Positions 9,297 through 49,155 of a stretch of 64,000 nucleotides of DNA are shown here, piece by piece. Position 1 is the stretch's first letter. Each line of letters begins with the position of its first letter. The position numbers and the translations under genes were made by a program. Origin of the DNA: a virus; the IMG/VR virus record IMGVR_UViG_3300032046_000015, positions 19,017-83,016 of that record; one strand, written 5' to 3'. The notes beneath the pieces were generated by a model. It searched no databases, had not been told where the DNA came from, and was given only the letters and a program-made list of their open reading frames with translations.

Positions 9297-9441
9297 TGTG
9301 TAAATTCCTCAACAATCGTGGCCAGCTGCTGGCGGTGTGTGAGGCGGTGGACGGAATCACCGCCAGTCAGCTGGGCCATCCGGTTTGCTATGTTACCCTT
9401 GAGGGAAGTGGTGGATGCTCGCAAACCAGACCGTGTGTGTA

Positions 9442-10518: not shown

Positions 10519-10530
10519 TTGCTGTTTCCT

Positions 10531-10734
10531 TTATGGCCAGTGATTAGCTTCATCATCGTGGACAGAACACTCCACCACGATTAGCTTGCCATTGCCGTGC
10601 TTCATCTCTTTTATCGTTTGATTGATTGTTACCACCAGCGCACGCTTTGTCTCACACACAAAGCGCTTCATACATCGTTTACAAAGTGACGCTGCCTTCA
10701 TGTGTATTCCTTTTTCATCCAATTCCCAGGCCAT
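10531..10734 (-). CDS. Small Cys-containing hypothetical protein
   Basis: CKRC..C..C; GGAGG RBS. Confidence 0.55.
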   Translation of the reverse strand: MAWELDEKGIHMKAASLCKRCMKRFVCETKRALVVTINQTIKEMKHGNGKLIVVECSVHDDEANHWP

Positions 10735-10789
10735 GTAACGTCCTCCAGGACACCGAATGGCCGTGACACCTGCTGGCAGATTGCGTGGC

Positions 10790-19283: not shown

Positions 19284-19787
19284 TTAACTCTTGGCCAATC
19301 CTTCCAAGTCAAAAGACATTTGATCAGTTGCCTTGATACGCCAGTCAATAACATCCTCAGGTTCAAATATCAAATCATTCACCCTTAATTCCTTGGGTGT
19401 TGACTTGGTGCTTGCTTGTATGACGCACCTGATTATACCTGTGTTAATTATGATGCGGACGCACCACTCACATATGTGTGTGTATCCGTACATATAAAGT
19501 GTAGCACCCATAGCACGTTCACGTCCTGCATGTAGACAAGCATTTGTCTCAGCATGAACTGAACGACATTTGAGATAATCGCTGCCGTGTGGTATGTTGT
19601 TATCCTCTCTGAAGCATTTGCCTATCTTCAAGCAATCCAACCGTTTGCGTGGAGCACCGTTGTAGCCAGTTGAAATGATCTGATCATCCTTGACTACAAC
19701 AGCACCCACTTGCCCTCTCAAGCACTTGGCATTTGAGCCCACTTCCCTGGCAATGCGCAAATAGTATTTGTCCTTGTCTGAAATCAT
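19284..19787 (-). CDS. dCMP deaminase
   Basis: VGAVVV..STGYNG, HAETNA, ICEWC zinc motifs. Confidence 0.9.
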   Translation of the reverse strand: MISDKDKYYLRIAREVGSNAKCLRGQVGAVVVKDDQIISTGYNGAPRKRLDCLKIGKCFREDNNIPHGSDYLKCRSVHAETNACLHAGRERAMGATLYMYGYTHICEWCVRIIINTGIIRCVIQASTKSTPKELRVNDLIFEPEDVIDWRIKATDQMSFDLEGLAKS

Positions 19788-22809: not shown

Positions 22810-22999
22810 ATTTACGCAAATCCCTCTTGTGTACTATCATGGGCAATTCCAGTTTACTCCAATCAACATCGTGAATCAAATACACCTTATCACGACTGAT
22901 CAACTTGGCAGGATTGCTTGATATTAACACAACATACTTGTTTGGTTTACCTTTAAGTTTGTGTTCTCTCATGAATGCTTTGATCACTGTCACCGACAT
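22751..22999 (-). CDS. Hypothetical protein
   Basis: ORF in operon. Confidence 0.45.
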   Translation of the reverse strand: MSVTVIKAFMREHKLKGKPNKYVVLISSNPAKLISRDKVYLIHDVDWSKLELPMIVHKRDLRKYVSPVQARLFWRYDGPTRN

Positions 23000-23604
23000 G
23001 GTACACCTGTCCTGGCTATTTCCAAAGCCTTTAACAGATCAACTACAAACTGCCCTTCATAAGTATCTGCCTCACGTCCTTGTTTCCTTAACAGATAAGC
23101 AGGATGCCATGTTGATACTGCTTTATATATGTGTCCAGTTATGGATACTGTACTCACCCTGCCCCTTATGACAGACATGTTATCATCCACACCTAACACA
23201 TAGAATGCCGATATGCGTCCAAGCGTCACTATGGCTTTAGGAGACACAGCATTGATCTGCCTTACCAAACGTTGACGGCATGACGCACCCCAATTCAAAT
23301 CTTGTATTTTGTTATCTGGTGGACGGCACATCAAAACGTTTGTTATGTAGGATTGTTCCAAGTCAACTCCTGCTGTATCTGCCAAACGTTCTAACATAGC
23401 ACCAGCCCTGCCCACAAACGGAACACCCTGTCTGTCTTCATTTGCTCCTGGTGCCTCTCCTATAAACATGATCTCAGGATTGATGCGCCCCTTCCCAAAA
23501 ACAACATTCTGTCTAGTCTTATGTAACTCACACAGTGTACAAGACTTGTACTTCTCTTGTATCCTCAGTATGCTAGGCATGTGTTGCCTCCATACTGTTT
23601 TCAT
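22990..23604 (-). CDS. Uracil-DNA glycosylase family 4
   Basis: CTLC, IGEAPG, PFVGRAG, TNVLMCRPP, HPAYLLR. Confidence 0.92.
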   Translation of the reverse strand: MKTVWRQHMPSILRIQEKYKSCTLCELHKTRQNVVFGKGRINPEIMFIGEAPGANEDRQGVPFVGRAGAMLERLADTAGVDLEQSYITNVLMCRPPDNKIQDLNWGASCRQRLVRQINAVSPKAIVTLGRISAFYVLGVDDNMSVIRGRVSTVSITGHIYKAVSTWHPAYLLRKQGREADTYEGQFVVDLLKALEIARTGVPCR

Positions 23605-31613: not shown

Positions 31614-34600
31614 TTATATGGCCTTGCGCCATGAATACTGTCTCAATATTTCTACATGCGACCTGTCTTCTAATACCAGGCCACCCCTCTCATGCTTAAT
31701 ATCAAACACTGCCACATTGCCCAACACTATCTGTTCTTTGAACTTTAGATAACTGCTGGCAAAGCAAACAGCAGTAAACACACGGTCAATTGTATCAATG
31801 CTAAAGAATGCCATGCCACGTCCATTCTTGTCAATTGTGTGTCGGGCATCTAGGATTAAGCCAGTCATTTCAAATATGTCGTGGCCTTTTTTCTTCACAG
31901 ACTTATTGGTACCAACAGCCTTGGACACAGGATGCTCAATGAAATACTGTTCCCAAAATGTCATTGGCTCACCTGTTATTATCTTGTGTCTTAATATGTC
32001 AAGATTGACAACCATATGAGCCTTCAAACTTTTCCATGTACCATGAGTGGATGCGTGTACCCTTAACACAACAGGAGTGCCCACGCCATCATCAATGACC
32101 TCTCTGAAAATTGGAAATGCATCTATATCCAACTTCACTCTGTTCCATACTCCTGTGGCATCTTCCACATTGAAGTTAGAGTATCTAGCACCCCATCTCA
32201 TCTTTAATCGCTCTTGTTCTGATGGCAATTCTTTGGCACTATAAAAATCACCCACGCAATTATATCTGACATCAATGATTTGTCCATTCAGATACACAGC
32301 ACGATTGGTCTTGAATAAATCTGGGTCATCCATGCTAATGAACTTAACATGCTTGCCCAAGCCTTTCAACACATCTCCATATGCCTCCATTGGGTGTTTA
32401 CCTAATGGCAATGGACTGACTTCAGCTGCCAGCAGAGCAAAATCTGTTTGGTTATAATCTGGTTCCATTTTACTCTTGGTCAAGCACTCCTCTATGGCTG
32501 TCCAATTGCCCTTGTTAGCCATGGCAAATATGTCCTGTTCGTGCTCCAAGAAATACTTGACATTGGGCAATAGATCAGATAGAGCACCAGCCTTTGACAG
32601 TGCCAATAGTGTTGTTCTCTTTACAAGCCGTCTGTCAACCTTCTGTAACATATCAACCAGTGAAGTATATGGTTGATATTTCACAATCTCTTTGATTGAA
32701 CTTTCACCGACACCTTTTATATCCAATAAACTACATCTAATTTGATTGCCCACAATCGTGAAATTCACTCCTGAATGGTTGGTATCTGGCCCAAGCACAT
32801 CTATTCCTTTTGCTCTTGTCTCTTTTATGAACCTTGTGACCTCTTGTCTGTCTGGTTCATTCTTCAACACTGCCCACATGAACTCCATAGGATAATGTAC
32901 CTTCAAAAACATTGTCCAATAAGCAATCACCCCATAAGCGCATGAGTGAGACTTGTTGAATGCGTATGATCCAAAGAATGTAATGCCGTCCATTAGTTTA
33001 TTGGCTTCACCTTCATCCATACCTTTGGACACAGCCCCCACAACAAACCTGTCACGCTCTTTTCCAAGCTTCTCATCACCGTGTTTCTTTGCCACTAGTT
33101 TGCGCAATGAGTCTGCTGTCTCAGGTTCATAGCCAGACAACTCAATAAATATCCTTGTCAGTTGTTCTTGATATACTAACACACCGTATGTCTCTTCACA
33201 TATCTTATCATATATGGGATGGATTGGCTTGATCTTTGTTGGATCATTTTTCCGGTCAATGTAAACGTTTGCCAAGCCACTTCTCATTGTGCCAGGCCTG
33301 TTCAACGCTGTCAATGCTGCCACGTCAGCAAATTGCGTGAATGTTATTTCTTCACACGTCTTGTACATTGATGTAGTGTCAAATTGGAAAATGCCAGCAA
33401 AATCTAAGTCAGTGAAACCTTGTAACACCTTGGGATCATCCAATGGCAATCGCTCCATATCTATGTCCAGATGGTGTCTATCCTTGATTGCTGTCAAGGT
33501 ATCTTTAATGACAGTGAGTGTTCTTAATCCAAGCACATCCAACTTCAACAATCCCATGTCTTCACAACCCCAGAAATTTATTGCCGCAACCCTAACACGT
33601 CTGCCACCTTCATCCTTGGTCTCAATTGGCACAACGTCACATATCGGCACAGGCGATGTCAACACGCCAGCGGCATGTATTCCTGTCTGTCTGACTTGTC
33701 CTTCCAATTCCTTGACAATAGGTAACACATAAGGATAATGGTCATTGAATTTTCTACAAACATCAAATTCCTTGAAACTGTCCTCAATAGTTTGACTGGC
33801 ACGCTCATCACCTGAACTCCTCTCTACAATACTGCTGGTGACTGCGTTCACTTCAGTTAGTGGCACATCTAACACACGGCACACATCCTTCAAACATAAC
33901 TTACCTTTCATAGTAACAGCTGTTCCTATCTGGGAGACATTGCCTATGCCATATTTATCACACAAATGTTGTAATATAAGACCACGCTTGCTGTCTTCAA
34001 AATCCATATCAATATCCGGCATATCTATTCTGGCTGGAGACATGAACCTTTCAAACAATAATCCATGTTCTATCGGATCAAGTGACGTTATGCCCAATAA
34101 GTAACACACAAGTGAACCAGCACTGGAACCACGTCCAGGCCCAACCATGATTCCTTCTTGTCTTGCCCAACCAAATAACTCATGAACCAGAATAAAATAT
34201 CCACTGAATTTCTGTCTCTTCATGGCAGCTAACTCAAGCAATAAACGTTCTGTGTACGTTTTTCTGTGCTGGACTGGATCAATGCCTAATTTGGCAGCCT
34301 TTTGCTCTATCTGATAATCCATATCACGCCACGGCCAACCGTCCAAGCATAATTGGTGTAGATACACATCGTGTGCTTCTGAGTCTGATGACGTTGTGTC
34401 CTTAATGTTCTGAGGTATGACTACAGGTGGAAGCAAACATTTGAACTTATCCATTACAACTTTGGCCTTACATTTCTCAGCAATCTCCATAGTATTACAC
34501 ATAGCATCAGTAATATCTGAACCACTAATGTCATGCTTGGACAGACTTTCCACCATTTCCTTGGGTGTCTTGAACCAAAACTCTTGAGTGTCGAATTTGA

Positions 34601-35381
34601 ATCTGTTCGGATTTGTCATCCTATCGTTTGTCTGGATACATAACAAAATTTCTTGATGTTGAGCATTCTCCTGGCGTATATAGTGGCAATCATTGGTGGC
34701 CACCATCTTAATGTTTAGAGCATGGGCAATCTTGACTAAATGCGGTGTCACTCTTAATTGATCTGGAAAAGTGTGAGGCATTATCTCTATGTAAAAATCA
34801 TCCCCAAAATTATCCTTCCACCACATGGCCTCATCGATGGCATCTATTGAATGGCCTTCCAAAATCAGAGATGGTATGTGCCCAGCTACACAAGCACTGG
34901 TAACAACAATTCCATCCTTATATTCCAACAGTGACTGTTTGTCTATCCTTGGCCTGTGATAGAATCCATCCACCCAAGCCTTGCTTGATAACCTGAACAG
35001 ATTCTTTAATCCATCATTATTCTTGGCAAACGCACACAAATGCCACCGTGGCCTTATCCCCAAACGTTTTTCCACTTCAAATATAGCGTGCTTTTGCTGT
35101 GCTTTTGCTGTCTCATCTATGATTTTGGCTTTCATGTCATCAGGCAAACTTTTAACCTTCATGTCAGAGGACATGTAAAACTCTATGCCGTATATGGGTG
35201 TCATTCCTTCAATACTTTTACAGGTGATTGCCAGATCATAAAATGATCGCATTGAACCATGCTCTGTAACAGCAAAATGTTTGAGTCCTATTTCTTTGGC
35301 ATATTGGACATACTTGGACACACTTCCGCAACCATCCAATAAGCTGTATTCTGTGTGCGTATGTAGGTGTACAAAATCCAT
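31614..35381 (-). CDS. dnaE: DNA polymerase III alpha subunit
   Basis: HLHTHTEYSLLDG PHP, GRGSSAGS, PDIDMDF, KLDVLGL, FNKSHS. Confidence 0.96.
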   Translation of the reverse strand: MDFVHLHTHTEYSLLDGCGSVSKYVQYAKEIGLKHFAVTEHGSMRSFYDLAITCKSIEGMTPIYGIEFYMSSDMKVKSLPDDMKAKIIDETAKAQQKHAIFEVEKRLGIRPRWHLCAFAKNNDGLKNLFRLSSKAWVDGFYHRPRIDKQSLLEYKDGIVVTSACVAGHIPSLILEGHSIDAIDEAMWWKDNFGDDFYIEIMPHTFPDQLRVTPHLVKIAHALNIKMVATNDCHYIRQENAQHQEILLCIQTNDRMTNPNRFKFDTQEFWFKTPKEMVESLSKHDISGSDITDAMCNTMEIAEKCKAKVVMDKFKCLLPPVVIPQNIKDTTSSDSEAHDVYLHQLCLDGWPWRDMDYQIEQKAAKLGIDPVQHRKTYTERLLLELAAMKRQKFSGYFILVHELFGWARQEGIMVGPGRGSSAGSLVCYLLGITSLDPIEHGLLFERFMSPARIDMPDIDMDFEDSKRGLILQHLCDKYGIGNVSQIGTAVTMKGKLCLKDVCRVLDVPLTEVNAVTSSIVERSSGDERASQTIEDSFKEFDVCRKFNDHYPYVLPIVKELEGQVRQTGIHAAGVLTSPVPICDVVPIETKDEGGRRVRVAAINFWGCEDMGLLKLDVLGLRTLTVIKDTLTAIKDRHHLDIDMERLPLDDPKVLQGFTDLDFAGIFQFDTTSMYKTCEEITFTQFADVAALTALNRPGTMRSGLANVYIDRKNDPTKIKPIHPIYDKICEETYGVLVYQEQLTRIFIELSGYEPETADSLRKLVAKKHGDEKLGKERDRFVVGAVSKGMDEGEANKLMDGITFFGSYAFNKSHSCAYGVIAYWTMFLKVHYPMEFMWAVLKNEPDRQEVTRFIKETRAKGIDVLGPDTNHSGVNFTIVGNQIRCSLLDIKGVGESSIKEIVKYQPYTSLVDMLQKVDRRLVKRTTLLALSKAGALSDLLPNVKYFLEHEQDIFAMANKGNWTAIEECLTKSKMEPDYNQTDFALLAAEVSPLPLGKHPMEAYGDVLKGLGKHVKFISMDDPDLFKTNRAVYLNGQIIDVRYNCVGDFYSAKELPSEQERLKMRWGARYSNFNVEDATGVWNRVKLDIDAFPIFREVIDDGVGTPVVLRVHASTHGTWKSLKAHMVVNLDILRHKIITGEPMTFWEQYFIEHPVSKAVGTNKSVKKKGHDIFEMTGLILDARHTIDKNGRGMAFFSIDTIDRVFTAVCFASSYLKFKEQIVLGNVAVFDIKHERGGLVLEDRSHVEILRQYSWRKAI

Positions 35382-35396
35382 ATCAATCCTTATGTG

Positions 35397-36524
35397 TTAG
35401 AATGGTGGTGGAATATAGTTGTTGGCACTCTTCAATAATGATAGTTGGTGACTAACAACCCGCTTCAAGTATTCAGGCAGACTGGTAGTCAACATCCAGT
35501 CCATATATTGCTTGCCTCTATCTGACTTCACTATTTCAGATAATTTTTGACCTTTGAATTTTCCAAATTCCAAACGGGCATCCTTGCCGTCAGGATCAAT
35601 GATGAAATTACTTTTGGCAGCTAACTTATCTGCTGCCACACGTGTATCAGTTTTGATTTTGTTTGCTGCTTGAGCAAATGTTCCTTTTGATTGCTTTTCA
35701 CTCCTCTCATATACCCATATATCTACACAACCAGTTTGGAGTGAAGCCATTATTCTGATGGCTATCTTTTGGTTGCTCATATCATAACACTTGGATACTT
35801 CCTGTAATACCACACCAAGAACATCTACATTTCTGTGGTGTAATAACACATCTTTATCAAGTCCAACTATTTTCTTCAAAGGCATTCCAACAGATTTGCC
35901 AAATTCGTACACAAGCGGTTGGAATGATACATCATAAACATCTCTGGCCGCATCAAATTCAAATTTGATTTCACCATTCGCTATTTGCGCTGTAGTGAAC
36001 CCATGCGACATGATCTGTTCAACGATTATAGTCTCAAGATCATTCCTTGATTGTACAACTACCAGATTGGTAATAGTAAAGAACACAGGTTCAGCGGCCA
36101 TGATTCTGTCCTTGACCTCTCCTCTGTGTTCAGGTTCAACATCAGGCGGCATGTTTACATATTCTCTTTTGAAGTCTATCCTTGCCGGATCAATGCCAAG
36201 ATATTTTCCATCTCCAACGTACACACCATCATGATCTGCTGTAGGAGTTGTGTTGATTGGCTGGTTTGGTTCTTTGTGTGTTTCTTCAACAGGTATCTTG
36301 GACTTGTCTATCTGAAAGGATAGTCCGCACTCAGTACAGGTATAATTGGTGCTGCCCACTGAGCCATACACCCTTTGCATTGTTGCTCCACAAGCTGGAC
36401 ACTTGAAACGGTTTGAGTTGATCCATTCCACTTCCAGTTTATTGCCCTTCTTGACCAGACCTTCTAATTGCCATCGCTTTCTGGCTGATTCCAAGCTCAC
36501 CATGTCCAATTCCTTTTGATCCAA
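35397..36524 (-). CDS. Hypothetical protein with Zn ribbon and C-terminal DUF3820-like motif
   Basis: CPAC..CTEC; FGKFKGQKLSEI..YMDWM. Confidence 0.6.
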   Translation of the reverse strand: MDQKELDMVSLESARKRWQLEGLVKKGNKLEVEWINSNRFKCPACGATMQRVYGSVGSTNYTCTECGLSFQIDKSKIPVEETHKEPNQPINTTPTADHDGVYVGDGKYLGIDPARIDFKREYVNMPPDVEPEHRGEVKDRIMAAEPVFFTITNLVVVQSRNDLETIIVEQIMSHGFTTAQIANGEIKFEFDAARDVYDVSFQPLVYEFGKSVGMPLKKIVGLDKDVLLHHRNVDVLGVVLQEVSKCYDMSNQKIAIRIMASLQTGCVDIWVYERSEKQSKGTFAQAANKIKTDTRVAADKLAAKSNFIIDPDGKDARLEFGKFKGQKLSEIVKSDRGKQYMDWMLTTSLPEYLKRVVSHQLSLLKSANNYIPPPF

Positions 36525-37063
36525 TGAAATACCTGCTTAAAGGTATCATCCTTGGTCGTGTGTGTAGTATCTATTCTCATTTTTGGAAATTGTATCCTTG
36601 TAAATATCTTATGTCCAAGCCTGGTCATCTTGTTATATTGTTGTAAATTGATTGGAATTGTTCCGTTGATTCTATCCTTGGCAGCTTGATATTCGCATTC
36701 CATCCATATTATCACAGCTTTTGCCTGTAACATATTAGAATGCCATAAATTAAACAGAAAATTCCAATCACATTTCAAATCCTGTATTGTACCATACATA
36801 ATTCCAGATGGCAATGACCTGTCCAGTATAACATCGGTTGGAGCCATTCTCAAGAAATCACTAGCATACACATCTTCATGAAAAGTATTGATAGCAATTC
36901 CATTGGCTTGTAATTGTACAGGATCAACACAAAATTCTTTGCTCTGATCAGGTGATACTCTGAAAGCCTTGTAGATAGGAACACACAACTCTTGCGACAG
37001 TCTCAAGGCAACATGAGACTTACCAGCGCCATTCAAACCTTCCAGAATAATAACAGGCATCAC
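36497..37063 (-). CDS. Deoxynucleoside monophosphate kinase (TMK-like)
   Basis: LEGLNGAGKS, ILDRSLPS. Confidence 0.8.
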   Translation of the reverse strand: MMPVIILEGLNGAGKSHVALRLSQELCVPIYKAFRVSPDQSKEFCVDPVQLQANGIAINTFHEDVYASDFLRMAPTDVILDRSLPSGIMYGTIQDLKCDWNFLFNLWHSNMLQAKAVIIWMECEYQAAKDRINGTIPINLQQYNKMTRLGHKIFTRIQFPKMRIDTTHTTKDDTFKQVFHWIKRNWTW

Positions 37064-38250
37064 ACCCTCATTGTCTCTGCCACAGCTTCTTTGAACCTTA
37101 TTAAGCCTGTGTTAATACTTGACAAATCAACATCCAGGTGAGGATAGACACGCATGCGTGTTGATCTAAAACATCCGCATATGAGTCCATGACGCATAGC
37201 CACCTCACCAAATTTCTTAGCATCCAAACCTGGTGTGTCTAGGCACAGCATCAGACCAGTCCACCTGACCTCTCCTAAAACACCCTTGAACTCTCCTCTT
37301 GATAATTGCTCAAACTCTGCCGCCAAATAATCGCCCAACAAATTGATGCGTGTGAAAACATTTGGTTCAGACAACTCATCCAGTACCTTGTGTGCTAGTA
37401 AACATGCTATGTTGTTACCACCAAATGTACTGAATTGGCTGCCAGGAGTAAGCACACAGAATGGTTCTATGGCTAGTGTGGCACCTATGGGTAATCCTGC
37501 GGCCAGTCCTTTAGCAAAGCACATGATATCAGGTTGGACACCATATAAATGTGCCGCTGACCAATCGCCACAACGTCCATGTCCTGATTGAACTTCATCA
37601 AATATCAATGGAATGTTGTGTTTAGCACACATATACCTGATGTGCTTCAACTCCTGTACATCTGGCAAACGCACATCGCTGTTGTCGTATATGGGGGTGA
37701 TCATGACTGCTTGAGCATTGTAAAACTCAATATCATTCACTGTGTCGAATGCCATGAATCCAGACAACTCAGGAGCAAAACCATTGTGGTGATATGGTGT
37801 AATTTCTTGGTTGATTGATGCTGACAAGGCACCATATGTTCTGCCATGAAATGAATTCTTGCGCACCCATATCGTATCACGGCCAGGTGATCCTTTATCA
37901 TGATTGTATTTTCTGGCTAGTTTTATGGCAGTCTCAACAGCCCCAGTCCCATCATTGCTGAAAAATACTTGGTCCATCTTGTGTATGTTACACAAACGTT
38001 CAGCCAATGTCTCTCTTGGTTCAGAATAGAACACGTGGGGTATGTGTACAGGTGGTTGTTTGGTTGCCATGATATCGCACAACCACTGAGTAGCCTTGCT
38101 AAAACTATTGACGCCTGTGTCGCAATACCAGTCAATCACGTTGTTGTATGTTACGTTTGTGACCATATCGTGCGCCACAGTTTTTGGATTGCGTGATATT
38201 ATCTCAAAAGGATAATGGACAACTGTGTCCATGATTCTACTTGGTTTCAT
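37060..38250 (-). CDS. Class III PLP aminotransferase (divergent ArgD-like)
   Basis: SFHGRT, FDEVQSGHGR, PDIMCFAKGL, STFGGN. Confidence 0.88.
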   Translation of the reverse strand: MKPSRIMDTVVHYPFEIISRNPKTVAHDMVTNVTYNNVIDWYCDTGVNSFSKATQWLCDIMATKQPPVHIPHVFYSEPRETLAERLCNIHKMDQVFFSNDGTGAVETAIKLARKYNHDKGSPGRDTIWVRKNSFHGRTYGALSASINQEITPYHHNGFAPELSGFMAFDTVNDIEFYNAQAVMITPIYDNSDVRLPDVQELKHIRYMCAKHNIPLIFDEVQSGHGRCGDWSAAHLYGVQPDIMCFAKGLAAGLPIGATLAIEPFCVLTPGSQFSTFGGNNIACLLAHKVLDELSEPNVFTRINLLGDYLAAEFEQLSRGEFKGVLGEVRWTGLMLCLDTPGLDAKKFGEVAMRHGLICGCFRSTRMRVYPHLDVDLSSINTGLIRFKEAVAETMRV

Positions 38251-39196
38251 TGTTGTTTATCCTCTTGCCTGTCCATACATCCCTGCCCCAGAATGATTGA
38301 TAATCTTCATGGCGTTGAGTTGTGAAACTCCTATATGTTTCAACTGGTGGACGTTGTTGATACAGTTCATAATGTTGGAACAATGGGCACATTGGCATGT
38401 TGTCCTCTCCTGATACACGCCTTTCATTCTCATGAATGAAGTGACAACCGTTATATGTGTCACCTTCCATACATGGTGGACTTGCCATTTCATAAAACAC
38501 TGGATGGACTTTGGTGGCCGTTTCAGACACAATTCCTTGGATGATTGGCCCCCACAATCCCAACTGCAGTATCCAACATGATCTCTTGCCGATTATGTGG
38601 AGCATGCTGTTGATGTTCATCGTCCATGATATTCTGTGTTGCGCTCCAAGTGGCATCAAATCACGGGCATCTTCCATTGGCACTCCAGCATCAACCAAAT
38701 CCTTGTACAGCTTTTGAATCTCTCTCATAGCAATGTGGTATGCGTTGTGTAGGATTGGGTTGCTATGTTGAAGTGCTTTGATTGTGTCGGCAACACGATA
38801 TGCGCCATCATCAGCAAAGTGTTCCATGGATAGTATCCGCATAGATTGACTCCACCAGCTTGAATCTGCTTGGTTGGGCACTATGTCCATTCCTATCCTA
38901 TCATCATGTTTGTGGCCTATTCTGTGTCTGACTGCTTGTTCACGCCAGCTAACACTCACCCCTTCCATCATGAATGTGAAATATATGGATTCACTGACAG
39001 GTATCTTTTGCGCCACCACTTTTCTGAATAAGTCAATCAACCCACCGCTGCCCATGTGATCGTCAGGATCACGTGCGCCTTGAGCAACTTGCTCAGGAGT
39101 GATCAACTGGTTGTTGGTTTTGCTTGCCCACCATATGCTGTATAAGGTTTCAAGCGGCAACCTTGTCCATGATATTAGTGTCACTTTTGGTTCCAT
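38237..39196 (-). CDS. thyX: ThyX-like flavin-dependent thymidylate synthase, divergent
   Basis: EQAVRHR, SQSMR, EDARDLMP, KRSC. Confidence 0.8.
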   Translation of the reverse strand: MEPKVTLISWTRLPLETLYSIWWASKTNNQLITPEQVAQGARDPDDHMGSGGLIDLFRKVVAQKIPVSESIYFTFMMEGVSVSWREQAVRHRIGHKHDDRIGMDIVPNQADSSWWSQSMRILSMEHFADDGAYRVADTIKALQHSNPILHNAYHIAMREIQKLYKDLVDAGVPMEDARDLMPLGAQHRISWTMNINSMLHIIGKRSCWILQLGLWGPIIQGIVSETATKVHPVFYEMASPPCMEGDTYNGCHFIHENERRVSGEDNMPMCPLFQHYELYQQRPPVETYRSFTTQRHEDYQSFWGRDVWTGKRINNNETK

Positions 39197-39209
39197 AGAT
39201 TTTTGCGCC

Positions 39210-40103
39210 TCACTTTTCTTGTTTATTTATTGGCAGCAATTGTGCTATTGCTTTTAACACAGCTGGCCAATTATGTACAATCACTACTTTGCCCATAAAA
39301 GGCTCAAAGGAATGGATGTTGGATTCACTACCATTGTACCATACCACACCCAAACCCATCTTGCTCAAATCATGAACATGCTTGAAGGAATTTTCAACCA
39401 CGCACACTCTATCTAGCTTCAATCTGGACAATGCCTCACACTTGTCCCTCTCCCATAAAATGAAATCAACAACTATATTGTGTTGCTTCAACCACGTCAG
39501 TGTGTCTGTATATATTGTGTTAATTAAGTGTGCTGGTCTGGCTGTTAGTATCCCAACCTGATATCCCAATTCTCTTAAATGCTGTATTCCGTTGACAGCG
39601 CCATCAATAGTAGGCAACAAGCCATAACCACCTACCATCCTAAAGTCATGTTTGGCATCCTCATGATCTTTATGAGTGGGGTTGTCTATCCTTCTGGCTT
39701 GTAGCCACTGCGCTTCATAGGCAGCAAATCCGGTGGCATAATCAGCCACTACATCATCCATGTCTAGCACAATTATCTTATGTGGGCTTGTTATATCGGA
39801 TAACCACCTGACGTCAACCAAATCAGACTTGGCATAAAATGCTTCAGCAAACTCCTCTGGTTCTATGCCTAAGCAAATCATTAAAGCCAGCAGGTGCTTG
39901 TAAACGTCCACGCACTCTATCAAAGCCTGTCTCCTATCTGCTTGGTTGTCCCGCACATTCTGTTTCAACAACCCCAAAGCCTTCTTGATCTCCACTGCCT
40001 CTTCATGCAATCCGTGTATGTGCTCCAAGAGTGCTTGAGATAAATCTACAACAGGCCAGTGTCGTTGTTGAATTTTCTGACGTTCCCACATTTCTTTAAG
40101 CAT
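39210..40103 (-). CDS. All-alpha dNTP pyrophosphatase fused to HAD 5'-nucleotidase
   Basis: EEAVE..ECVDVYKH; DMDDVVAD, LTARP. Confidence 0.75.
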   Translation of the reverse strand: MLKEMWERQKIQQRHWPVVDLSQALLEHIHGLHEEAVEIKKALGLLKQNVRDNQADRRQALIECVDVYKHLLALMICLGIEPEEFAEAFYAKSDLVDVRWLSDITSPHKIIVLDMDDVVADYATGFAAYEAQWLQARRIDNPTHKDHEDAKHDFRMVGGYGLLPTIDGAVNGIQHLRELGYQVGILTARPAHLINTIYTDTLTWLKQHNIVVDFILWERDKCEALSRLKLDRVCVVENSFKHVHDLSKMGLGVVWYNGSESNIHSFEPFMGKVVIVHNWPAVLKAIAQLLPINKQEK

Positions 40104-41101
40104 ACATGCTCCACAAAGTCAGATAGTTTGTCCATGATCTTGTCGACAGTTTCACGTGGATTCCAGGAAGCAAATCTGCCCACTGGTAACACATTAATAG
40201 GATAGTTCAATTTTTCAGTCAATGGATATATGTGTCCAGGCAATGTTGCTCTGACACGTCCCAATCTAGCATCCTTGATTGTTTTTTGGATGATTGTTAT
40301 AGCCTTAATCCAATCTGGTTCTGTCACTCCAGTGATCTCAGCCATCCATACTTTCTGTTCGCAATCGCTGGTTGATATGCGATGTGGTCCACCATTCTCA
40401 GGAAAATACACATACTTATAGCGCCAGAACATTCTGGAGTGTGTGTGTGTATCTGCTATGTGTACTTTATTACACATAGTGTTAGGCATATGCCAAGCTG
40501 CCACTCTCCTAAACAACCAAAGTGGCAAACTGGTCACTACATAATCGAATGTGTCCACTGTATCATCATCCATATCTATGGACACTCCTGTTTGTATCAA
40601 ACTGAGTTCAACAACTTTGGCTAAATGAATGTTGATGTTTTTTCTGGCACGCTGTACAAAAGTATTAAAATCAATATCAATAATTTTTTCCTGCCCTGAG
40701 GCAGCATTCATACAAGTATTTGCGTATCCATCCATGGTTCCTCTTGTTTTCAAAAAATGAGCTTGCTGAATCTTTTCTGTTACCTCACTCAATGGAATGA
40801 TGTGCTCCTTCCACCATACTGCCCCTTCCACTTCATCAACAAAAAAAGGCACCTTCAATTGAGCCAAAAGTTGCTCCAATTGAGGGTGCCATTTCAATAA
40901 TTTCAATCCACCTGATTGCCATGAACCGCCAATCTCTTCTGATATCAGCGTCACATCCAATCCTTGGTTGACTAAATAGTTTGCTGAAACAAGCCCAAGA
41001 ATGCCACCACCTAACACAGCGACCTTGGCTGTGTTAGATGGTGTAGTTTGTGTGCGAGTATAGTGTATCATCTGTGTTAGGATTATATGGGATGAGGCCA
41101 A
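40046..41101 (-). CDS. FAD-dependent oxidoreductase (UGM/PPO-like fold)
   Basis: VLGGGILGL..EEIGG, DYVVTSLP, VGRFASW. Confidence 0.8.
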   Translation of the reverse strand: MASSHIILTQMIHYTRTQTTPSNTAKVAVLGGGILGLVSANYLVNQGLDVTLISEEIGGSWQSGGLKLLKWHPQLEQLLAQLKVPFFVDEVEGAVWWKEHIIPLSEVTEKIQQAHFLKTRGTMDGYANTCMNAASGQEKIIDIDFNTFVQRARKNINIHLAKVVELSLIQTGVSIDMDDDTVDTFDYVVTSLPLWLFRRVAAWHMPNTMCNKVHIADTHTHSRMFWRYKYVYFPENGGPHRISTSDCEQKVWMAEITGVTEPDWIKAITIIQKTIKDARLGRVRATLPGHIYPLTEKLNYPINVLPVGRFASWNPRETVDKIMDKLSDFVEHVCLKKCGNVRKFNNDTGLL

Positions 41102-41119
41102 CTTGTGGCCTCATTCCCT

Positions 41120-42949
41120 TTACACGTGGATGACACCGTCTGTGTTCAGTTTCTGTATAGCCTTGACCACGCCATCGGTATTGGCCTCAACCACGCCCAT
41201 GAGTCTGGCCTTGAACGCTCCATCAAACGCTGTGTCCTTGATGTCTGTCTTGAATGGTACAGCCTTTTGAGCGATATTTGTGTCTGGACATGGCAACCCC
41301 ACATCGATGTTTCCGGTGCGTGGTTTGATATAAAGGATAGCCAGACCTTGCTCCCTGCCTGTAGTCTTATGGCAGTACATGGTCAGGTATCCAGAACCAC
41401 CACCGCCCAATGGCGTCTTGTCGATGATGTAAAAATCGCCATCATTCTGTGCCGCTGCTTTGTCCATTAACGTCTTGCTGAACGCTGCCGCTATCTTGTG
41501 GGCCAGAGTCATGGCCAAGAGTCTGGACGGATTGTTAGGATCAAGCATGCCCGATATGACCTTGGGTTTTGGTTCTGCCTTGGCCTTGGGAGCAGCCTTC
41601 TTTGTCTCCTCTCCTGCTGGTTCTGTCGCTGGCTCAGAAGCATCCGCAGGGGCTGGTTTTTCTTTGGCCTTGGTATCCGATTGAGGCTTGGCTGTTGCTT
41701 TGGCAGCTTTGGGTTTTTCCTTGGCAGCTTTGGGCTTGCTTTTGTCCGGTTTGGCCTTGGCATCTGCTGTTTCCGCAGGAGTTTCAGTTGATGTGTCCGC
41801 TTTGGGTGCTTCCGCTGGCGCTGGCGTTGGTGTGTCCGCTTTGGGTGCTTCCTGTTTAGCCTTCTTGCCTTTGGACTTGCCACCCTTCTTCATCAACTCA
41901 GTTCCCTTCTGAAGCAGTGCGATGATTCCATCCTCTCCTGCTGTTGCGGCTGTTTTGACGATGTTAGTCCATTCGCCACCCTCAGCTTCTGCCACCGCTC
42001 TGGCGGCATCAGCTATAGGTTTGCACTCATCACGTTTGGCACATGGTTCCTTTTCCTTTTCCTGTTTGGCTGATGGGTTGCCATCGCACTCTGCGAGTCC
42101 AACCTCATAAAAGCCAACGCATCCACCACTTCCCTGTTCATCCTTCTGTTCGTCTGACATGTCGTCACCTCCAGTTAAAATTTGGCCAACCAAAGATTGG
42201 CTTGTCAATACACAAGATTTTTCGCCTGTGTCCTTATTATTTGATGTTGTAGCTAAAAGTATCATTTTGGCCTTGATCCTTTTTAAGCTGCTTTTAATTT
42301 GTCCAGTTGTTGCTCCTATCTTTTGAGATAGATAACTGATCACCTGAAAACTGCGAGTCAACACTTCTGCCAAATCCCGCAAGTCTTGTGGTGGATTCAG
42401 AACCATCTGTAGCACCTTCCTGTCTATAGGTTTGTCCAAAGATTCAAACAAACGTTGCCTATTCATTTTGGACACACGATTATGTTCCAAATCCATCAAT
42501 ATGGTTTCTGGTGTATTTCTGTGTACAAGCCAACAATCCTCTCTCTTATGGGCATGGTGGCCTAATGCCAATGGCTCCTCTGCCAACCATTGTTCTGGAC
42601 TTGGATACACAGAATGTGGGCTCAATTGTACTTTGTTGGTTTCGCTGTCTATATAATGTGGATTGCGCTTTTGTGCGAAGTGATATGATATAATCATGGG
42701 CGCCACATTATTCAGAGATTGGTAGAAATATGTGCTAAATTTGACACCTTTGTTGGGATCAAATTTCACCATAGCAGCCATAAGAGTCATCCTGAACATC
42801 TGTTCAATATCTGCCACATCCTCTCCTATCTTGAATGATAGTTGTATGGCCTTCTTGTGTATGAGTGGTGCTACACCATTCAACACCGTCTCAAACTTTT
42901 TTCTCACTTCATCCGGACAAGTGAAATTGTCTGGTACCAATTTGATCAT
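41120..42949 (-). CDS. Sigma-70-like factor fused in frame to a Cys4/Ala-Lys-Pro-rich protein (internal start at 42160)
   Basis: DIEQ..LMAAMVKFDPNKGVKFSTY (region 2); C-terminal HTH-like ISYLSQKIG; GAAAGGA RBS at 42949; GGAGGTGA RBS before 42160. Confidence 0.7.
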   Translation of the reverse strand: MIKLVPDNFTCPDEVRKKFETVLNGVAPLIHKKAIQLSFKIGEDVADIEQMFRMTLMAAMVKFDPNKGVKFSTYFYQSLNNVAPMIISYHFAQKRNPHYIDSETNKVQLSPHSVYPSPEQWLAEEPLALGHHAHKREDCWLVHRNTPETILMDLEHNRVSKMNRQRLFESLDKPIDRKVLQMVLNPPQDLRDLAEVLTRSFQVISYLSQKIGATTGQIKSSLKRIKAKMILLATTSNNKDTGEKSCVLTSQSLVGQILTGGDDMSDEQKDEQGSGGCVGFYEVGLAECDGNPSAKQEKEKEPCAKRDECKPIADAARAVAEAEGGEWTNIVKTAATAGEDGIIALLQKGTELMKKGGKSKGKKAKQEAPKADTPTPAPAEAPKADTSTETPAETADAKAKPDKSKPKAAKEKPKAAKATAKPQSDTKAKEKPAPADASEPATEPAGEETKKAAPKAKAEPKPKVISGMLDPNNPSRLLAMTLAHKIAAAFSKTLMDKAAAQNDGDFYIIDKTPLGGGGSGYLTMYCHKTTGREQGLAILYIKPRTGNIDVGLPCPDTNIAQKAVPFKTDIKDTAFDGAFKARLMGVVEANTDGVVKAIQKLNTDGVIHV

Positions 42950-45816: not shown

Positions 45817-47865
45817 TCAAATATGTTTGATCATGTGTTTCTTTAGGATGTTTAGAATAACAGCAGGCATCTTGTCCATGTCATTGATCACAGCATACTC
45901 TGGATAGAATTGCTTAACATAGTCAACGTCCAAACCTATGCCAATCAACTCTATTCCTGCTTTGATCACTTTTCTAATGACATTATTCAGATCAGATTTC
46001 AACAAGCTCAAATCGGTGCCCCACTCCAGATTAGGTTGGCCATCCGATAGCACTATCAGCATCTTGCGTTTTTCTGTACGCTCAGCCAAACGTTTGGCTG
46101 CGAACATGATGCTTTCATTATCACAATTACAACTACTACTATTATTATCCAAACCAAGTAATCTATACTTGGCCTGATTATAGTTGTCGTTGAAGGATTT
46201 TGCGATGTAGTGTCGCAATCCCCAATAACGGTTGTAGTGACCATGAGCTTGTTCATAGTGCTTCTGAAATTCTTCAAACTTCTTATCGCCAGACTGTTTG
46301 GCATCGCCACAACGTCTTGGATGTAGTGCGTTGAAGCCAATAATTTCTATGGCAATCCCCAGCTGATTAAGTATTTCAGACAAGATCAACGCTGTCTGCC
46401 TTGCCATATGAATCTTGTTTCCTGCCATGGAACCAGAACAATCAATCAATAGCGTCACAGCAGTATCCAATTCCACTTTAGCAGATGGCTGAAAGAAAAT
46501 TTGTTTGCTTCCAGTCCTTAACCTGTACAGTGCACCGTTGTCCAAGCTGCCGCTATCCTGATCCATGACAGCGCCACGATGAGTGCGTGATCTCAACAGT
46601 GAAATGATCTTTGATCGCAACGCAGACACATTCCGTTTGACAGAATCAAACTCAGCCTTGTAGTGATCGTGTCCAACCGCAAGTGGTGTGATCTCTCTGT
46701 CCAACTTGACAGCTTCAGGATGAGGCAAATGGCGATGCTGTGATTTAGCTGTGTCCATTGCCTTCTGTGCCAACTCATCCTTTGTAGCGTTCATCAGATC
46801 ATCCGTGGTTTTGGTAGTCTCAGCTTCGTCGATGAAATCAGCGATGTCCTTTGGTTCTATTGAGTGATTGTAGTCTATATCACCACCGCTGGACTTATCC
46901 GTCAACTTTTTGCCATCAGATTTGGCATCGCTGCTGTCGTTGCTCTCAACCCCTCTCCCTTGACCTGGGCCATCTTCACCATCCTCATCCTCTTCATCGC
47001 TGTCGCCATCGCTGTCGCTATCCTCTCCAGCGTCACTCTCCTCTTCACCACTCTCCTCTTCAACGTCTTCACCCTCATCCTCTTCATCAGCACCACCGTT
47101 GCCCTGTCCACTCTCCTCTTCACCACTCTCCTCTTCAACATCATCCGGTTGAGGAGTGTTCTTGCCCTTGCCTTTGCCGCTATCCTTCTTGTTATCTTTT
47201 TGCTCTTGAGCTTTCTGCTGTTTAGCTTGCTGTTCCTGCTGCTGTTGTAACTCCTCTTTATAATCGCCCAAAGCCTTGAGTGTGTCTCTGGCTAGATCAA
47301 AAGCCTGTTGGTAATCGGATACAGAATTGGCTTTTGACCAAGTTGGCCTTAAAGCCTCAACGATGGCCTGTGCCTCTTTAGGTAACCACGACACGTCATA
47401 ACCCATCAACCTGCCCAAGATACCCATGCCAATCGCTTTGAACGGATCAATCTGATCTCTATTCCTTTTGGCAGATACAAAACCATGATCATTGGCAGCT
47501 TTGATGTTCTGCGAACAGCCAATCAACTCTCCAGATAGTTCACGTTCAATCCTATAATCCTCAAACACGTTGAACAACTGCTTGAGTTTATTGTCCGTTG
47601 TGTTCTTCAGCAAATCCAACGGTGTAGTGCGCCCAGCTTCTTGTGCCTTGCGCTGTACTTCCACGTGCTTCCACTCATGATCCAACAATCCTTCCAACAC
47701 ACTCGCATCCGCATCCTTCATATCGTCAGCATTGACAGGGATGTTAATGGTGTCTATCATGTTAGTATCACACCTGAAACCAGACAGCTGAACGTTGATG
47801 TTAAAGTTGCGTGAGAACGTCCTTGCTATCTTTGTCCATCTTGTGTCCAATCTGTTACCAGCCAT
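45817..47865 (-). CDS. CobT-like VWA protein with N-terminal HExxH domain and acidic linker
   Basis: LDHEWKH..NVFEDYRIE; LLIDCSGSM MIDAS; VLSDGQP; IGIG. Confidence 0.88.
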   Translation of the reverse strand: MAGNRLDTRWTKIARTFSRNFNINVQLSGFRCDTNMIDTINIPVNADDMKDADASVLEGLLDHEWKHVEVQRKAQEAGRTTPLDLLKNTTDNKLKQLFNVFEDYRIERELSGELIGCSQNIKAANDHGFVSAKRNRDQIDPFKAIGMGILGRLMGYDVSWLPKEAQAIVEALRPTWSKANSVSDYQQAFDLARDTLKALGDYKEELQQQQEQQAKQQKAQEQKDNKKDSGKGKGKNTPQPDDVEEESGEEESGQGNGGADEEDEGEDVEEESGEEESDAGEDSDSDGDSDEEDEDGEDGPGQGRGVESNDSSDAKSDGKKLTDKSSGGDIDYNHSIEPKDIADFIDEAETTKTTDDLMNATKDELAQKAMDTAKSQHRHLPHPEAVKLDREITPLAVGHDHYKAEFDSVKRNVSALRSKIISLLRSRTHRGAVMDQDSGSLDNGALYRLRTGSKQIFFQPSAKVELDTAVTLLIDCSGSMAGNKIHMARQTALILSEILNQLGIAIEIIGFNALHPRRCGDAKQSGDKKFEEFQKHYEQAHGHYNRYWGLRHYIAKSFNDNYNQAKYRLLGLDNNSSSCNCDNESIMFAAKRLAERTEKRKMLIVLSDGQPNLEWGTDLSLLKSDLNNVIRKVIKAGIELIGIGLDVDYVKQFYPEYAVINDMDKMPAVILNILKKHMIKHI
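47034..47139. repeat. 31-bp direct repeat in acidic linker (VEEESGEEES x2)
   Basis: Copies at 47034-47064 and 47109-47139. Confidence 0.8.
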
Positions 47866-47967: not shown

Positions 47968-49155
47968 TCAGTATCCAAAGATGCGCTGGACGATGGCTTT
48001 CACATAAGTCTCATCCTCTTTGGATAGTTTGTTAAGAACAGCAACCTGCGCTGCCTTGTGAACTCCCAGTTTACCTATCTTGTTTGCCCACATGATAAGT
48101 CTGCGAGTGGACAGCGTGCAGTGGCATTCCTCATGGATCAATCCGTTGCGAACATACTTGGCCACTTCAACCAGCTTCTTGGCCACATCCAAACCAACAT
48201 TGGCTTTTCTGTGTATTATCATGGCTTCTTGCGTTTGTGGAATGTAATCCTGAAAAATCACCGTTCCAAACCTATCCAAGAAGGCTTCATTGAGTGTGTT
48301 AGTGCCAACATATAATCCAGTGTCATCACCGTGTCCAGTCGTGTTCGCTGTGGATATGATTCTGAAATTCTCATGCGGCTCAACAACCTCACCATGATTC
48401 GCAGTCAATACCAATTGGCCACTATCTAGCACAGACTGTAACACGAACAGGATTTGCGGTGTGGCGGCATCTATCTCATCTAACAGCAACCAGTATCCTC
48501 TCCGCATGGCATCCGGCAGGACACCATCTTTCCAAGAGACAATCGCTTGATTTGTGGATGTCGCTATTTCTACAACCTTTTCACCTACAAAATCGGATGC
48601 CCTGATATCACCATGTAGATTCACACGCTTAACAGGTTGGTTGAGCAGCGCAGCCAATTCCTTAACAGTCGCTGTTTTACCGCAACCTGTCGGGCCAACC
48701 ATCAGAACGTTATCACCTTGCTCTATCCCCAAGGCCAACATTTCCGTGACCGCTGGGTCAAGATCAAAATTTGGATCGTGGTTTGGGATGTGCTTCTTAT
48801 CTATCTCATCCAAACCGTTATCCGGTCTCAAGGACAACTCCGCAGCCCCAAACGTTAATGCCAACCCGTTTGCCACCGCTGGGCTTACAGTTGGCTCAAG
48901 TGTAATAACGTTTGCGCCATTCTCTGGCTTATCAGCGTTGCCATTTAAGTTGTTCAGTTGCTTACCTTTTTGAGCCATGCTTATTTGGTTGCTACCAAAC
49001 AGACTAATCGTGGGTGCCCCAAGATGTTTAGCCTTGTAAGTATGGACATCCATTCCATGTCTGCTTTTGAGGTGGACGGCCAGAGTATGGTACCATCTAC
49101 CACACTCTTGGCATTCGATCATCTCATTGCCATTCCTGTCTAACTTTCCAGCCAT
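47968..49155 (-). CDS. MoxR-family AAA+ ATPase (CobS/CbbQ-like) with N-terminal C2H2 zinc finger
   Basis: CQEC..HLKSRH; GPTGCGKT, LLDEID, TANT, NEAFLDRF, STRRL. Confidence 0.9.
   Translation of the reverse strand: MAGKLDRNGNEMIECQECGRWYHTLAVHLKSRHGMDVHTYKAKHLGAPTISLFGSNQISMAQKGKQLNNLNGNADKPENGANVITLEPTVSPAVANGLALTFGAAELSLRPDNGLDEIDKKHIPNHDPNFDLDPAVTEMLALGIEQGDNVLMVGPTGCGKTATVKELAALLNQPVKRVNLHGDIRASDFVGEKVVEIATSTNQAIVSWKDGVLPDAMRRGYWLLLDEIDAATPQILFVLQSVLDSGQLVLTANHGEVVEPHENFRIISTANTTGHGDDTGLYVGTNTLNEAFLDRFGTVIFQDYIPQTQEAMIIHRKANVGLDVAKKLVEVAKYVRNGLIHEECHCTLSTRRLIMWANKIGKLGVHKAAQVAVLNKLSKEDETYVKAIVQRIFGY

Follow-up and report, generated by a model that had tools for sequence, protein, structure and literature searches.

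What use has a phage for an aminotransferase and a flavoenzyme wedged in among genes that handle pyrimidine nucleotides? The question is posed by a stretch of 64,000 nucleotides (the window) that makes up bases 19017-83016 of a complete viral genome of 83,016 bp with direct terminal repeats (IMG/VR record IMGVR_UViG_3300032046_000015), the phage being uncultured and its source a sediment metagenome. Between positions 36497 and 41101, the minus strand carries five co-oriented open reading frames (ORFs), which encode a flavoprotein, a fused MazG-like and NT5C-type hydrolase, a ThyX-like protein, a class III aminotransferase, and a kinase. Neighbors overlap by 4-58 nt or lie 13 nt apart. A sequence-only reading of the window had remarked on this tight packing near dnaE, which is borne out, and had taken the genes for a pathway leading to an amine-bearing pyrimidine.

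I propose, with a confidence a little short of even, that the five-gene module makes a C5-modified, probably amine-bearing, deoxyuridine nucleotide prior to replication and at the same time clears the cell of dTTP and dTMP. The proposal is built on domain identities, with every step inferred. What can be said for it, and for the explanations that compete with it, is considered below.

A module shared by uncultured phages

The clustering of these genes cannot be put down to chance, because the same five families occur together in other viral contigs. About 30 distinct uncultured IMG/VR contigs, of 80-116 kb, carry them side by side next to DnaE, and the five genes may therefore be taken as a real, deeply conserved module that is confined to phages. 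It persists despite identities of 30-37% in the transaminase and 23-28% in the flavoprotein, and it is contiguous in each of three internal orders: ThyX-transaminase-kinase, transaminase-ThyX-kinase, and transaminase-kinase-ThyX. One complete genome (G016) has the module split, with ThyX-transaminase-kinase at 13-16 kb and the MazG/NT5C fusion, along with a weak flavoprotein-like ORF, by DnaE at 39-43 kb.

The association of the transaminase with a long form of ThyX (described in the next section) is seen in the scores obtained with a hidden Markov model (HMM) of the transaminase family. Every locus that reaches at least 360 bits has a long ThyX adjacent to it, while none of the approximately 49 loci at or below 296 bits, which hold generic class III enzymes, does.

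The module has also acquired genes. In four lineages there is a methyltransferase-like gene within it, encoding about 260 amino acids with weak matches to TRM5/TYW2 and DUF938. At one locus a Methyltransf_11 gene, unrelated to that family, stands beside ThyX, and at another there is a second class III aminotransferase inside the module (Table 1). Extra methyltransferase-like or transaminase genes fit what would be expected of a tailoring pathway. The module as a whole behaves like a biosynthetic cluster, in that it reorders, is split in one genome yet retained there, and gains genes inside.

Do cultured phages have anything of the kind? Megablast of the region against them gave no match, none of the five proteins was found to have a close relative there, and tblastn with ThyX, the transaminase, and the MazG/HAD protein returned only matches that are remote or host-derived. 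A search of the literature found no report linking a ThyX homolog, an aminotransferase or transaminase, and phage DNA modification.

Predicted activities of the five proteins

All five proteins retain their catalytic residues. The ThyX-like protein is assigned to its fold by an AlphaFold2 model (pLDDT 82), which Foldseek matches to many ThyX structures with a probability of 1.00 and TM-scores, by target, of 0.55-0.71. It scores 69.1 bits against Pfam Thy1, for which the cut-off is 24.8, and 61.2 bits against the NCBIfam equivalog TIGR02170, for which the cut-off is 87.9. Seven of its residues (Q87, R90, R92, S118, R120, R178, and R205) are invariant in 30-40 sequences, and they are the counterparts of the dUMP-binding set of T. 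maritima ThyX (Q75, R78, R80, S88, R90, R147, and R174). The N-terminal GHxSxxEH motif is not kept: in the register that pairs E69 with E58 of the T. maritima enzyme, His53 gives way to a variable position (K64) and Ser55 to an invariant proline (P66). The branch to which the protein belongs has four invariant cysteines of its own (C207, C242, C251, and C270) and a C-terminal extension.

The feature that had first drawn attention, about 25 residues between RHR and SxR in place of about 7, is confirmed. RHR at residues 90-92 is followed next by S118-M-R120, and the alignment puts 25 residues between them as against 7 in T. maritima ThyX. Across the long branch this loop measures 24-33 residues and is modeled as disordered. 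The motif after it reads SQSMR(I/V/L), with Ile, Val, or Leu replacing the tyrosine that follows SxR, and the canonical signature RHR-x7-S-x-R-Y is absent, since both the spacing and the tyrosine differ.

There are at least 359 homologs of the protein in a collection of 5.8 billion proteins, mostly 45-66% identical to it and many of them on contigs of 85-116 kb. A scan of cellular genomes from 185,579 species with a pattern from the ThyX alignment turned up no relative, which, given the limits of a pattern, is weak evidence of absence. A search of 19 related genomes, of which 15 have a completeness of 90% or more, found no ThyA (PF00303). One relative (genome G032, that of locus L016) has a second ThyX, canonical in length and matching the full Thy1 profile at 119 bits, that lies about 20 kb from the long ThyX. 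In small phages with PolA, the long ThyX directly follows genes for a nucleoside-deoxyribosyltransferase-like protein, a YfbR-like HD 5'-deoxynucleotidase, a short-chain dehydrogenase/reductase (SDR), or DUF6378. This neighborhood may represent a further tailoring module, lacking a transaminase, that is built on this type of enzyme.

The aminotransferase matches Aminotran_3 at 219 bits. Its best scores with NCBIfam ArgD models are 232 bits, against cut-offs of at least 372, and all 25 models listed fall under their cut-offs. It is 33-38% identical both to its phage relatives and to cellular ArgD. The claim that it keeps the motifs for pyridoxal phosphate (PLP) while altering other conserved segments proves correct. 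K247, D218, and Q221 (the PLP lysine, the aspartate that faces the pyridine nitrogen, and the glutamine) are conserved, as is T275, and the two altered segments, ITPIYDNSDV and NDGTGA, are present where claimed, aligning to IQGEGGV or PIQGESGI and to NSGTE of solved ArgD enzymes. What was EPIQGEGG is TPIYDNSD in the window and (A/T)P(V/I)xGNNDV across the family, and with it has gone the glutamate that shields the C-terminal arginine. Both substrate arginines are kept, R137 (in FHGRT) and R362. I infer that the two are retained for a dicarboxylate, and the loss of the glutamate switch may free R362 for the phosphate of a substrate. Secondary matches are to putrescine, ornithine, and diaminobutyrate aminotransferases.

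The hydrolase consists of a MazG-like, all-alpha NTP pyrophosphohydrolase domain (residues ~1-100) and a 5'(3')-deoxyribonucleotidase domain of the NT5C type (residues ~105-297), one of the haloacid dehalogenase (HAD) group. The window's own copy matches only generic HAD models. Its orthologs match NT5C (Pfam) in 17 of 19 cases (best, 3.7e-17), and their N-terminal 100 residues or so match MazG (6 of 19), PRA-PH (5 of 19), or dUTPase_2 (2 of 19). The motifs for metal and nucleophile are conserved in both domains (EExxE...ExxD; DxDxV, T, K, ED). Judged by its sequence, this one polypeptide can convert a pyrimidine dNTP first to the monophosphate and then to the nucleoside, which fits a role in pool clearing. 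A trimeric dUTPase was found in one of 16 related genomes.

The kinase had been called a dNMP kinase, a domain assignment that holds, and it belongs to a family resembling thymidylate and deoxynucleoside kinases. It matches the thymidylate kinase phrog_761 (9.8e-14), the best matches of its profile in the PDB are YorR of SPbeta followed by Tmk and dNK, and family members match Thymidylate_kin (14 of 19) and dNK (8 of 19). Its identity as a kinase of 5-hydroxymethyldeoxyuridine (5-hmdU) in DNA was entertained and rejected: PF18748, which M6 gp54 does match, is matched by none of the 19 orthologs, and there is no PF18748 match in the phage's own complete genome. The 96% probability that hhalign gives to an alignment with M6 gp54 reflects no more than shared membership in the P-loop kinase superfamily.

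The flavoprotein by its sequence offers a Rossmann GxGxxG and weak matches to DAO and NAD_binding_8. An AlphaFold2 model from 17 orthologs (pLDDT 82) is more telling. The top Foldseek matches of the model are PF1083, L-amino-acid oxidase, NicA2, and renalase, and its structural neighbors include putrescine and polyamine oxidases. VIA-align gives a Z of 22.8 to UDP-galactopyranose mutase (UGM) 4dsg (310 aligned, rmsd 3.5), about 21 to protoporphyrinogen oxidase (PPO), and 18-19 to renalase and L-amino-acid oxidases. Neighbors in the Atlas are viral clusters first and then Amino_oxidase (PF01593) families. As modeled, the protein is a two-domain FAD fold of the UGM/PPO/amine-oxidase/renalase superfamily and is not placed in one subfamily. 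Invariant residues of the family include H115, K118, T119, R120, N132, Y232, H290, R309, W313, and R316, and the many basic ones among them (H115, K118, R120, H290, R309, and R316) may point to an anionic substrate. The family is almost confined to contigs that bear the module, and tblastn of the protein against cultured phages gave no match. A member scoring 255 bits sits near the end of one contig (L159), with no MazG/NT5C match in the next 1.5 kb; that locus may represent a variant arrangement.

A proposed pathway and its rivals

How might five such proteins work together? The pathway would begin with dUMP, derived from the action of dCMP deaminase, its presumed source, and of the MazG-like domain. 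The latter would also degrade dTTP to dTMP, and the NT5C domain would then remove the canonical pyrimidine dNMP. The ThyX-fold enzyme would use flavin chemistry to attach a one-carbon unit at C5 of dUMP, omitting the final reduction to a methyl group, and so yield either 5-hydroxymethyl-dUMP or a trapped methylene intermediate. The flavoprotein would oxidize the side chain to an aldehyde, which the transaminase, with glutamate as donor, would convert to 5-aminomethyl-dUMP or some related amine-bearing side chain. From there the kinase would make the diphosphate, host NDP kinase the triphosphate, and phage DnaE, presumed to be the user of the product, would incorporate it. The methyltransferase-like genes or second transaminase of the relatives could extend or tailor the side chain.

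Going by domain identities, all the parts of a pre-replicative replacement module are present and adjacent: a synthase homolog, a dNMP kinase, hydrolases, and a polymerase. The fused hydrolase would work against ThyX if ThyX made dTMP, and so it counts in favor of modification. So does the genomic context, specifically a dCMP deaminase and a uracil-DNA glycosylase in the genome of the window, a canonical ThyX in one relative, and the lack of ThyA in 19 genomes and of a trimeric dUTPase in 15 of 16. Of 12 complete genomes with the module, 7 have the deaminase. A post-replicative route was looked for, and neither a PF18748 kinase (19 orthologs and the phage's own genome) nor a ThyA-type synthase (19 related genomes) was found. 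Nor did the phage's own genome contain a match to the amino-acid:DNA transferase (aGPT-Pplase) exemplified by M6 gp51, in a single-sequence search run without a positive control. The case made by the sequence-only reading for an amine-bearing pyrimidine finds support in the module itself, in pool clearing, in the type of kinase, in the residues kept and lost by the transaminase, and in the tailoring genes of relatives, and it finds none in the spacing in ThyX.

Pre-replicative base replacement is already known as a kind, and it is the set of enzymes that is new. Similar in plan are phages SPO1, SP8, and phi-e, with 5-hydroxymethyl-dU, and T4, with 5-hydroxymethyl-dC. Like the module, they have a homolog of a C5 synthase that acts on the monophosphate and a phage dNMP kinase, and systems of the SPO1/T4 type also share hydrolysis of canonical dNTP and dNMP, dCMP deaminase, and a polymerase of their own. 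Hydroxymethyluracil phages clear canonical nucleotides by means of a dTTPase-dUTPase and a dTMPase. A dTTPase is also found in phiW-14 (PMC5977210). The module differs from SPO1 and T4 in that its synthase is a ThyX-fold flavoenzyme rather than a homolog of ThyA, its clearing activities are fused in one protein, and it has in addition a transaminase and a flavoprotein that have no counterpart there.

Another system near to it is that of Bacillus phage SP-15. Its 5-(4',5'-dihydroxypentyl)uracil is a hypermodified dU made as the triphosphate before replication, and its gp130 is a divergent second paralog of Thy1 that the authors guessed was not a thymidylate synthase (PMC5977210). Beyond gp130, 3 kb downstream, lie gp134, annotated as hypothetical, and gp135, annotated as a "polynucleotide kinase", which match the HMM of the module kinase (E 1.9e-6) and that of MazG/NT5C in its HAD part (E 1.6e-9). 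The group gp127, gp129, and gp130 (deoxyribosyltransferase, SDR, and Thy1) resembles the neighborhood of the long ThyX in small phages. The idea that gp130 belongs to the long ThyX branch as a close relative was rejected, with an hhalign probability of 9% and a marginal BLASTP match. No transaminase or flavoprotein of the module families was found in the 45-kb stretch of SP-15 that was scanned.

For the steps from alcohol to amine, there is a precedent in the biosynthesis of pseudouridimycin. SapB (PumI), an FAD oxidase, and then SapH (PumG), a BioA-like transaminase of fold type I, take a nucleoside alcohol to the aldehyde and on to the amine, and the gene cluster also holds a kinase homolog and an enzyme acting at C5 of uracil (PMC10127198). 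SapB and SapH differ in that they serve a bacterial antibiotic pathway, act at the 5' carbon of a ribonucleoside, and comprise a GMC oxidase and a transaminase of another class III lineage. Taken together, the precedents of SP-15 and SapB/SapH make the chemistry of the module plausible.

Amine-bearing side chains on C5 of dU are also found in phages M6, ViI, and PaMx11 (5-NmdU and 5-AcNmdU), where they are made after replication. A flavoenzyme, gp47 of PaMx11, and PLP enzymes take part in this post-replicative hypermodification (PMC8989533). Their pathways work on DNA and require a ThyA-type dUMP hydroxymethylase, a PF18748 kinase, and an aGPT-Pplase transferase, three enzymes that the searches described above did not find here. 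PaMx11 gp47 is similar to MnmC1/DAO, whereas the module flavoprotein is similar to UGM, PPO, and monoamine oxidase. A more distant parallel is the formation of xm5U in tRNA by MnmEG, MnmC1, and MnmC2, in which a methylene group is transferred to C5 of uracil by flavin and folate, an FAD oxidoreductase leaves an aminomethyl group, and a SAM-dependent methyltransferase acts on it (PMC8989533). The extended modules of the relatives have the same three types of enzyme, but the tRNA pathway acts on RNA, its enzymes are unrelated (MnmG and the DAO-type MnmC1), and it has no transaminase.

Several considerations weigh against the proposed pathway. The long ThyX branch is also present in small PolA phages of 37-59 kb, with the same insert, SQSMR(I/V/L), and four cysteines, and several of these phages, with complete genomes, lack a class III aminotransferase altogether. 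The product of the long ThyX is probably the same in both groups of phages, and it may simply be dTMP. The odd spacing in ThyX had been read as a hint of an amine pathway. As a trait of the whole virus-only branch, transaminase-free PolA phages included, it says nothing specific about one. Furthermore, those ThyX proteins that are linked to a transaminase come out of a quick maximum-likelihood tree as essentially one clade, nested among the ThyX of small phages. The association thus arose once, the counts of co-occurrence are not counts of independent events, and the linkage of ThyX and transaminase could be inherited synteny. The joint occurrence of the five families, to which the sequence-only reading had looked as a check, is a fact in about 30 contigs, but its single origin makes it weak as independent evidence.

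The enzymes themselves raise doubts as well. The aminotransferase stands no nearer to its phage relatives than to cellular ArgD. The fold class of the flavoprotein usually carries out C-N or C-C oxidation or acts as a mutase, and it is not known to oxidize alcohols. Then there are the Pbunaviruses, a cultured, PB1-like group of which Pseudomonas phage 109 (Table 1) is an example, with a distant block of the form flavoprotein-ThyX-HAD-DnaE. Their ThyX (305 aa) aligns to the long-ThyX profile at 98% probability, and their flavoprotein aligns weakly. Their block differs in having no transaminase and no kinase, an HAD protein of the PNKP type instead of MazG+NT5C, and a ThyX with RTR and canonical spacing, and I regard it as a distant analog only. 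DNA modification is not reported for Pbunaviruses in the papers searched, and phages including one Pbunavirus have been typed by restriction maps with HindIII, EcoRI, and XbaI (PMC6521218).

From these points it is a short step to the best of the rival explanations, that the genes serve an ordinary supply of nucleotides. ThyX would be a dTMP synthase, the kinase a dTMP kinase, MazG a dUTPase, and NT5C an enzyme for the salvage of host nucleotides, while the transaminase and flavoprotein would be passengers, auxiliary genes of (for example) amino-acid or polyamine metabolism. I consider this unlikely, though there are points in its favor. The arginines and serine that bind dUMP are all kept in ThyX, and in complete small phages lacking the transaminase, the same branch provides the sole homolog of thymidylate synthase. 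ThyX and the transaminase became linked a single time, the latter is 33-35% identical to cellular ArgD along its whole length, and the MazG domain could substitute for the absent trimeric dUTPase. The layout in Pbunaviruses, with no modification reported in the papers searched, is in keeping with this as well.

But it would be a strange economy in which a dUTPase was fused to a pyrimidine 5'-deoxynucleotidase, since the combination would waste the dUMP on which a thymidylate synthase draws or the dTMP that it yields. Nor do passengers account for a transaminase subfamily that occurs only, and a flavoprotein subfamily that occurs almost only, alongside the long ThyX, or for a module that stays together through rearrangement and takes in methyltransferases or another transaminase. 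There is also the canonical ThyX of one relative. The transaminase falls far under all cut-offs for ArgD equivalogs and is without the glutamate switch, and ThyX is without equivalents of Tyr91 and His53 and falls under the cut-off of TIGR02170. If ThyX nonetheless makes plain dTMP, then what we have is a conserved but ordinary block for nucleotide supply, with two unexplained passenger enzymes.

A second rival, which I find hard to credit, moves the amine from the base to the sugar, as in pseudouridimycin. The MazG/NT5C protein would free the deoxynucleoside of a pyrimidine made by ThyX, the flavoprotein would form an aldehyde from its 5'-OH, and the transaminase would turn that into a 5'-amino-5'-deoxynucleoside. 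The kinase could act on this product, which might inhibit nucleotide enzymes of the host or go into the making of phosphoramidate-linked DNA. The scheme gives NT5C a direct role, that of making a free 5'-OH, and it can call upon SapB and SapH, which carry uridine or pseudouridine from 5'-OH through the 5'-aldehyde to the 5'-amine and are encoded in a cluster with a kinase homolog (PMC10127198). The module kinase, moreover, resembles deoxynucleoside kinases and YorR of SPbeta as much as it does Tmk. However, SapB is a GMC oxidase, in contrast to the UGM/PPO/amine-oxidase fold here, the transaminase is of the ArgD lineage, not that of BioA/LipO, and its two arginines and missing glutamate switch would seem to suit an anionic substrate better than a neutral nucleoside. 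A 5'-amino nucleoside would also have no evident use beside a replicative polymerase.

A variant that keeps the base as the target, and that I would call a long shot, takes the long ThyX to be a flavin-iminium "reductive alkylase" and not a folate-dependent methylase. Given an amino-aldehyde supplied by the transaminase, the flavoprotein, or both, the enzyme would attach it to dUMP at C5 through a C-C bond, and the product would be a 5-(omega-aminoalkyl)-dUMP. Amino-aldehydes are products of putrescine or ornithine aminotransferases and oxidases. Under the same variant, the SDR, deoxyribosyltransferase-like, and HD nucleotidase partners in small PolA phages would give other side chains, and the dihydroxypentyl-uracil nucleotide of SP-15, which is derived from ribose, could be explained as well.

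Finally, I find quite improbable a scheme in which a free amine or aldehyde, derived from polyamines or amino acids, is produced or trimmed by the transaminase and flavoprotein and is then attached to DNA or nucleotide by another enzyme, as in the putrescinyl- and diaminopropanyl-thymine phages: the transaminase does have its secondary matches to putrescine, ornithine, and diaminobutyrate aminotransferases, the flavoprotein does have putrescine and polyamine oxidases among its structural neighbors, and a host diaminobutyrate aminotransferase does supply the diaminopropane-thymine pathway (PMC13458397), but the genome lacks a kinase of the 5-hmdU DNA type and a ThyA-type hydroxymethylase, the single-sequence search of it with M6 gp51 gave no match, and the module kinase lies outside PF18748.

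Should the module instead make a C5-modified deoxyuridine nucleotide, as I propose, DNA modification by way of a ThyX-fold enzyme would be without precedent, and so would the use of a transaminase at the stage of the nucleotide pool; a new route would be added to the few pre-replicative base replacements. The module would explain how widespread phages of soil and sediment, of about 100 kb, evade restriction, and it would give a function to a large virus-only branch of ThyX (the same 359 or more sequences) now annotated as thymidylate synthase. It would also be a ready source of enzymes for amine-functionalized dNTPs.

Surroundings of the module

Nearly all genes are on the minus strand. The stretch was found in Logan contigs of three sediment metagenomes, and no RNA data set was listed among those that contain it. 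The locations of the genes discussed here are collected in Table 1.

Table 1. Locations of module genes, their neighbors, and comparable genes elsewhere. Plain positions refer to the window; those prefixed by L or G refer to other loci and genomes.
Feature	Location	Strand	Basis or remark
Flavoprotein, ~340 aa, predicted UGM/PPO/amine-oxidase fold	40046-41101	-	GxGxxG, predicted structure
MazG-like + NT5C-type HAD fusion	39210-40103	-	Pfam matches of orthologs, conserved motifs
Long ThyX-fold protein, 319 aa, virus-only branch	38237-39196	-	Thy1 score, predicted fold
Class III PLP aminotransferase, ArgD lineage, remodeled substrate pocket	37060-38250	-	Aminotran_3, conserved residues
P-loop dNMP/deoxynucleoside kinase, 188 aa	36497-37063	-	phrog_761, profile matches
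Zn-ribbon protein, 375 aa	35397-36524	-	Weak ExoX-like C-terminal match; between kinase and DnaE
Phage DnaE (Pol III alpha with PHP domain)	31614-35381	-	Domain match; syntenic in relatives
dCMP deaminase	19284-19787	-	Domain match
Uracil-DNA glycosylase superfamily protein	22990-23604	-	Domain match
Sigma-like protein, 635 aa	41120-43027		Directly upstream of module; sigma-70 region 2/ECF-type match, N-terminal quarter only
CobT-like VWA protein and MoxR/CbbQ-type AAA+ ATPase	45817-47865 and 47968-49155		Upstream of module
Methyltransferase-like genes, ~260 aa	L011:9186-9998, L013:6430-7200, L014:9180-9983, L016:11136-11888		Within module
Methyltransf_11 gene	L010:180-1070		Beside ThyX
Second class III aminotransferase	L031:8686-9912		Inside module
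Second ThyX, canonical length	G032:C1:71777-72358		Genome of locus L016
Long ThyX neighborhoods of small PolA phages	L041:7608-11272; L044:8824-11251
Flavoprotein-family member	L159:7983-9071		Near contig end
SP-15 gp127, gp129, gp130	L049:33730-36911
SP-15 gp134, gp135	L049:39919-41103
Pseudomonas phage 109 (Pbunavirus, L131): "polyamine oxidase" flavoprotein; ThyX; HAD; DnaE	6635-7636; 8845-9762; 9958-10995; 11071-14732		Genes 091, 085, 083, 081

The module had been described as lying upstream of dnaE, and so it does, but not immediately, for the gene of the Zn-ribbon protein intervenes between kinase and DnaE. In relatives only the C-terminal 13-23% of this protein is recognizable, and it is probably part of the context, outside the pathway. 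Downstream of the module there are RecA and SbcCD-like genes. The CobT-like and MoxR/CbbQ pair on the other side is syntenic with the module in most relatives.

A scan for promoter and terminator consensus sequences found nothing above chance inside the module, with counts near those expected from shuffled sequence, and gave no operon boundaries. Together with the overlaps and shared orientation of the five genes, the lack of internal signals fits a single operon-like unit. The flavoprotein gene starts more likely with the ATG at 41071 than at 41101, given the alignment with relatives and a hairpin upstream. An imperfect inverted repeat, GGGAATGAGGCC ... TGGCCTCATCCC, is found at about 41094-41125, in the interval that separates the sigma-like gene's stop from the flavoprotein gene. 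This repeat spans the TTG at 41101, and a TATAAT comes after. It may be an RNA hairpin or a regulatory site at the head of the module. Other early or replication genes of the window match, in Pfam, a TSCPD domain, an NMN-transporter-like protein, an HAD_PNKP phosphatase, and a PDDEXK_15 nuclease.

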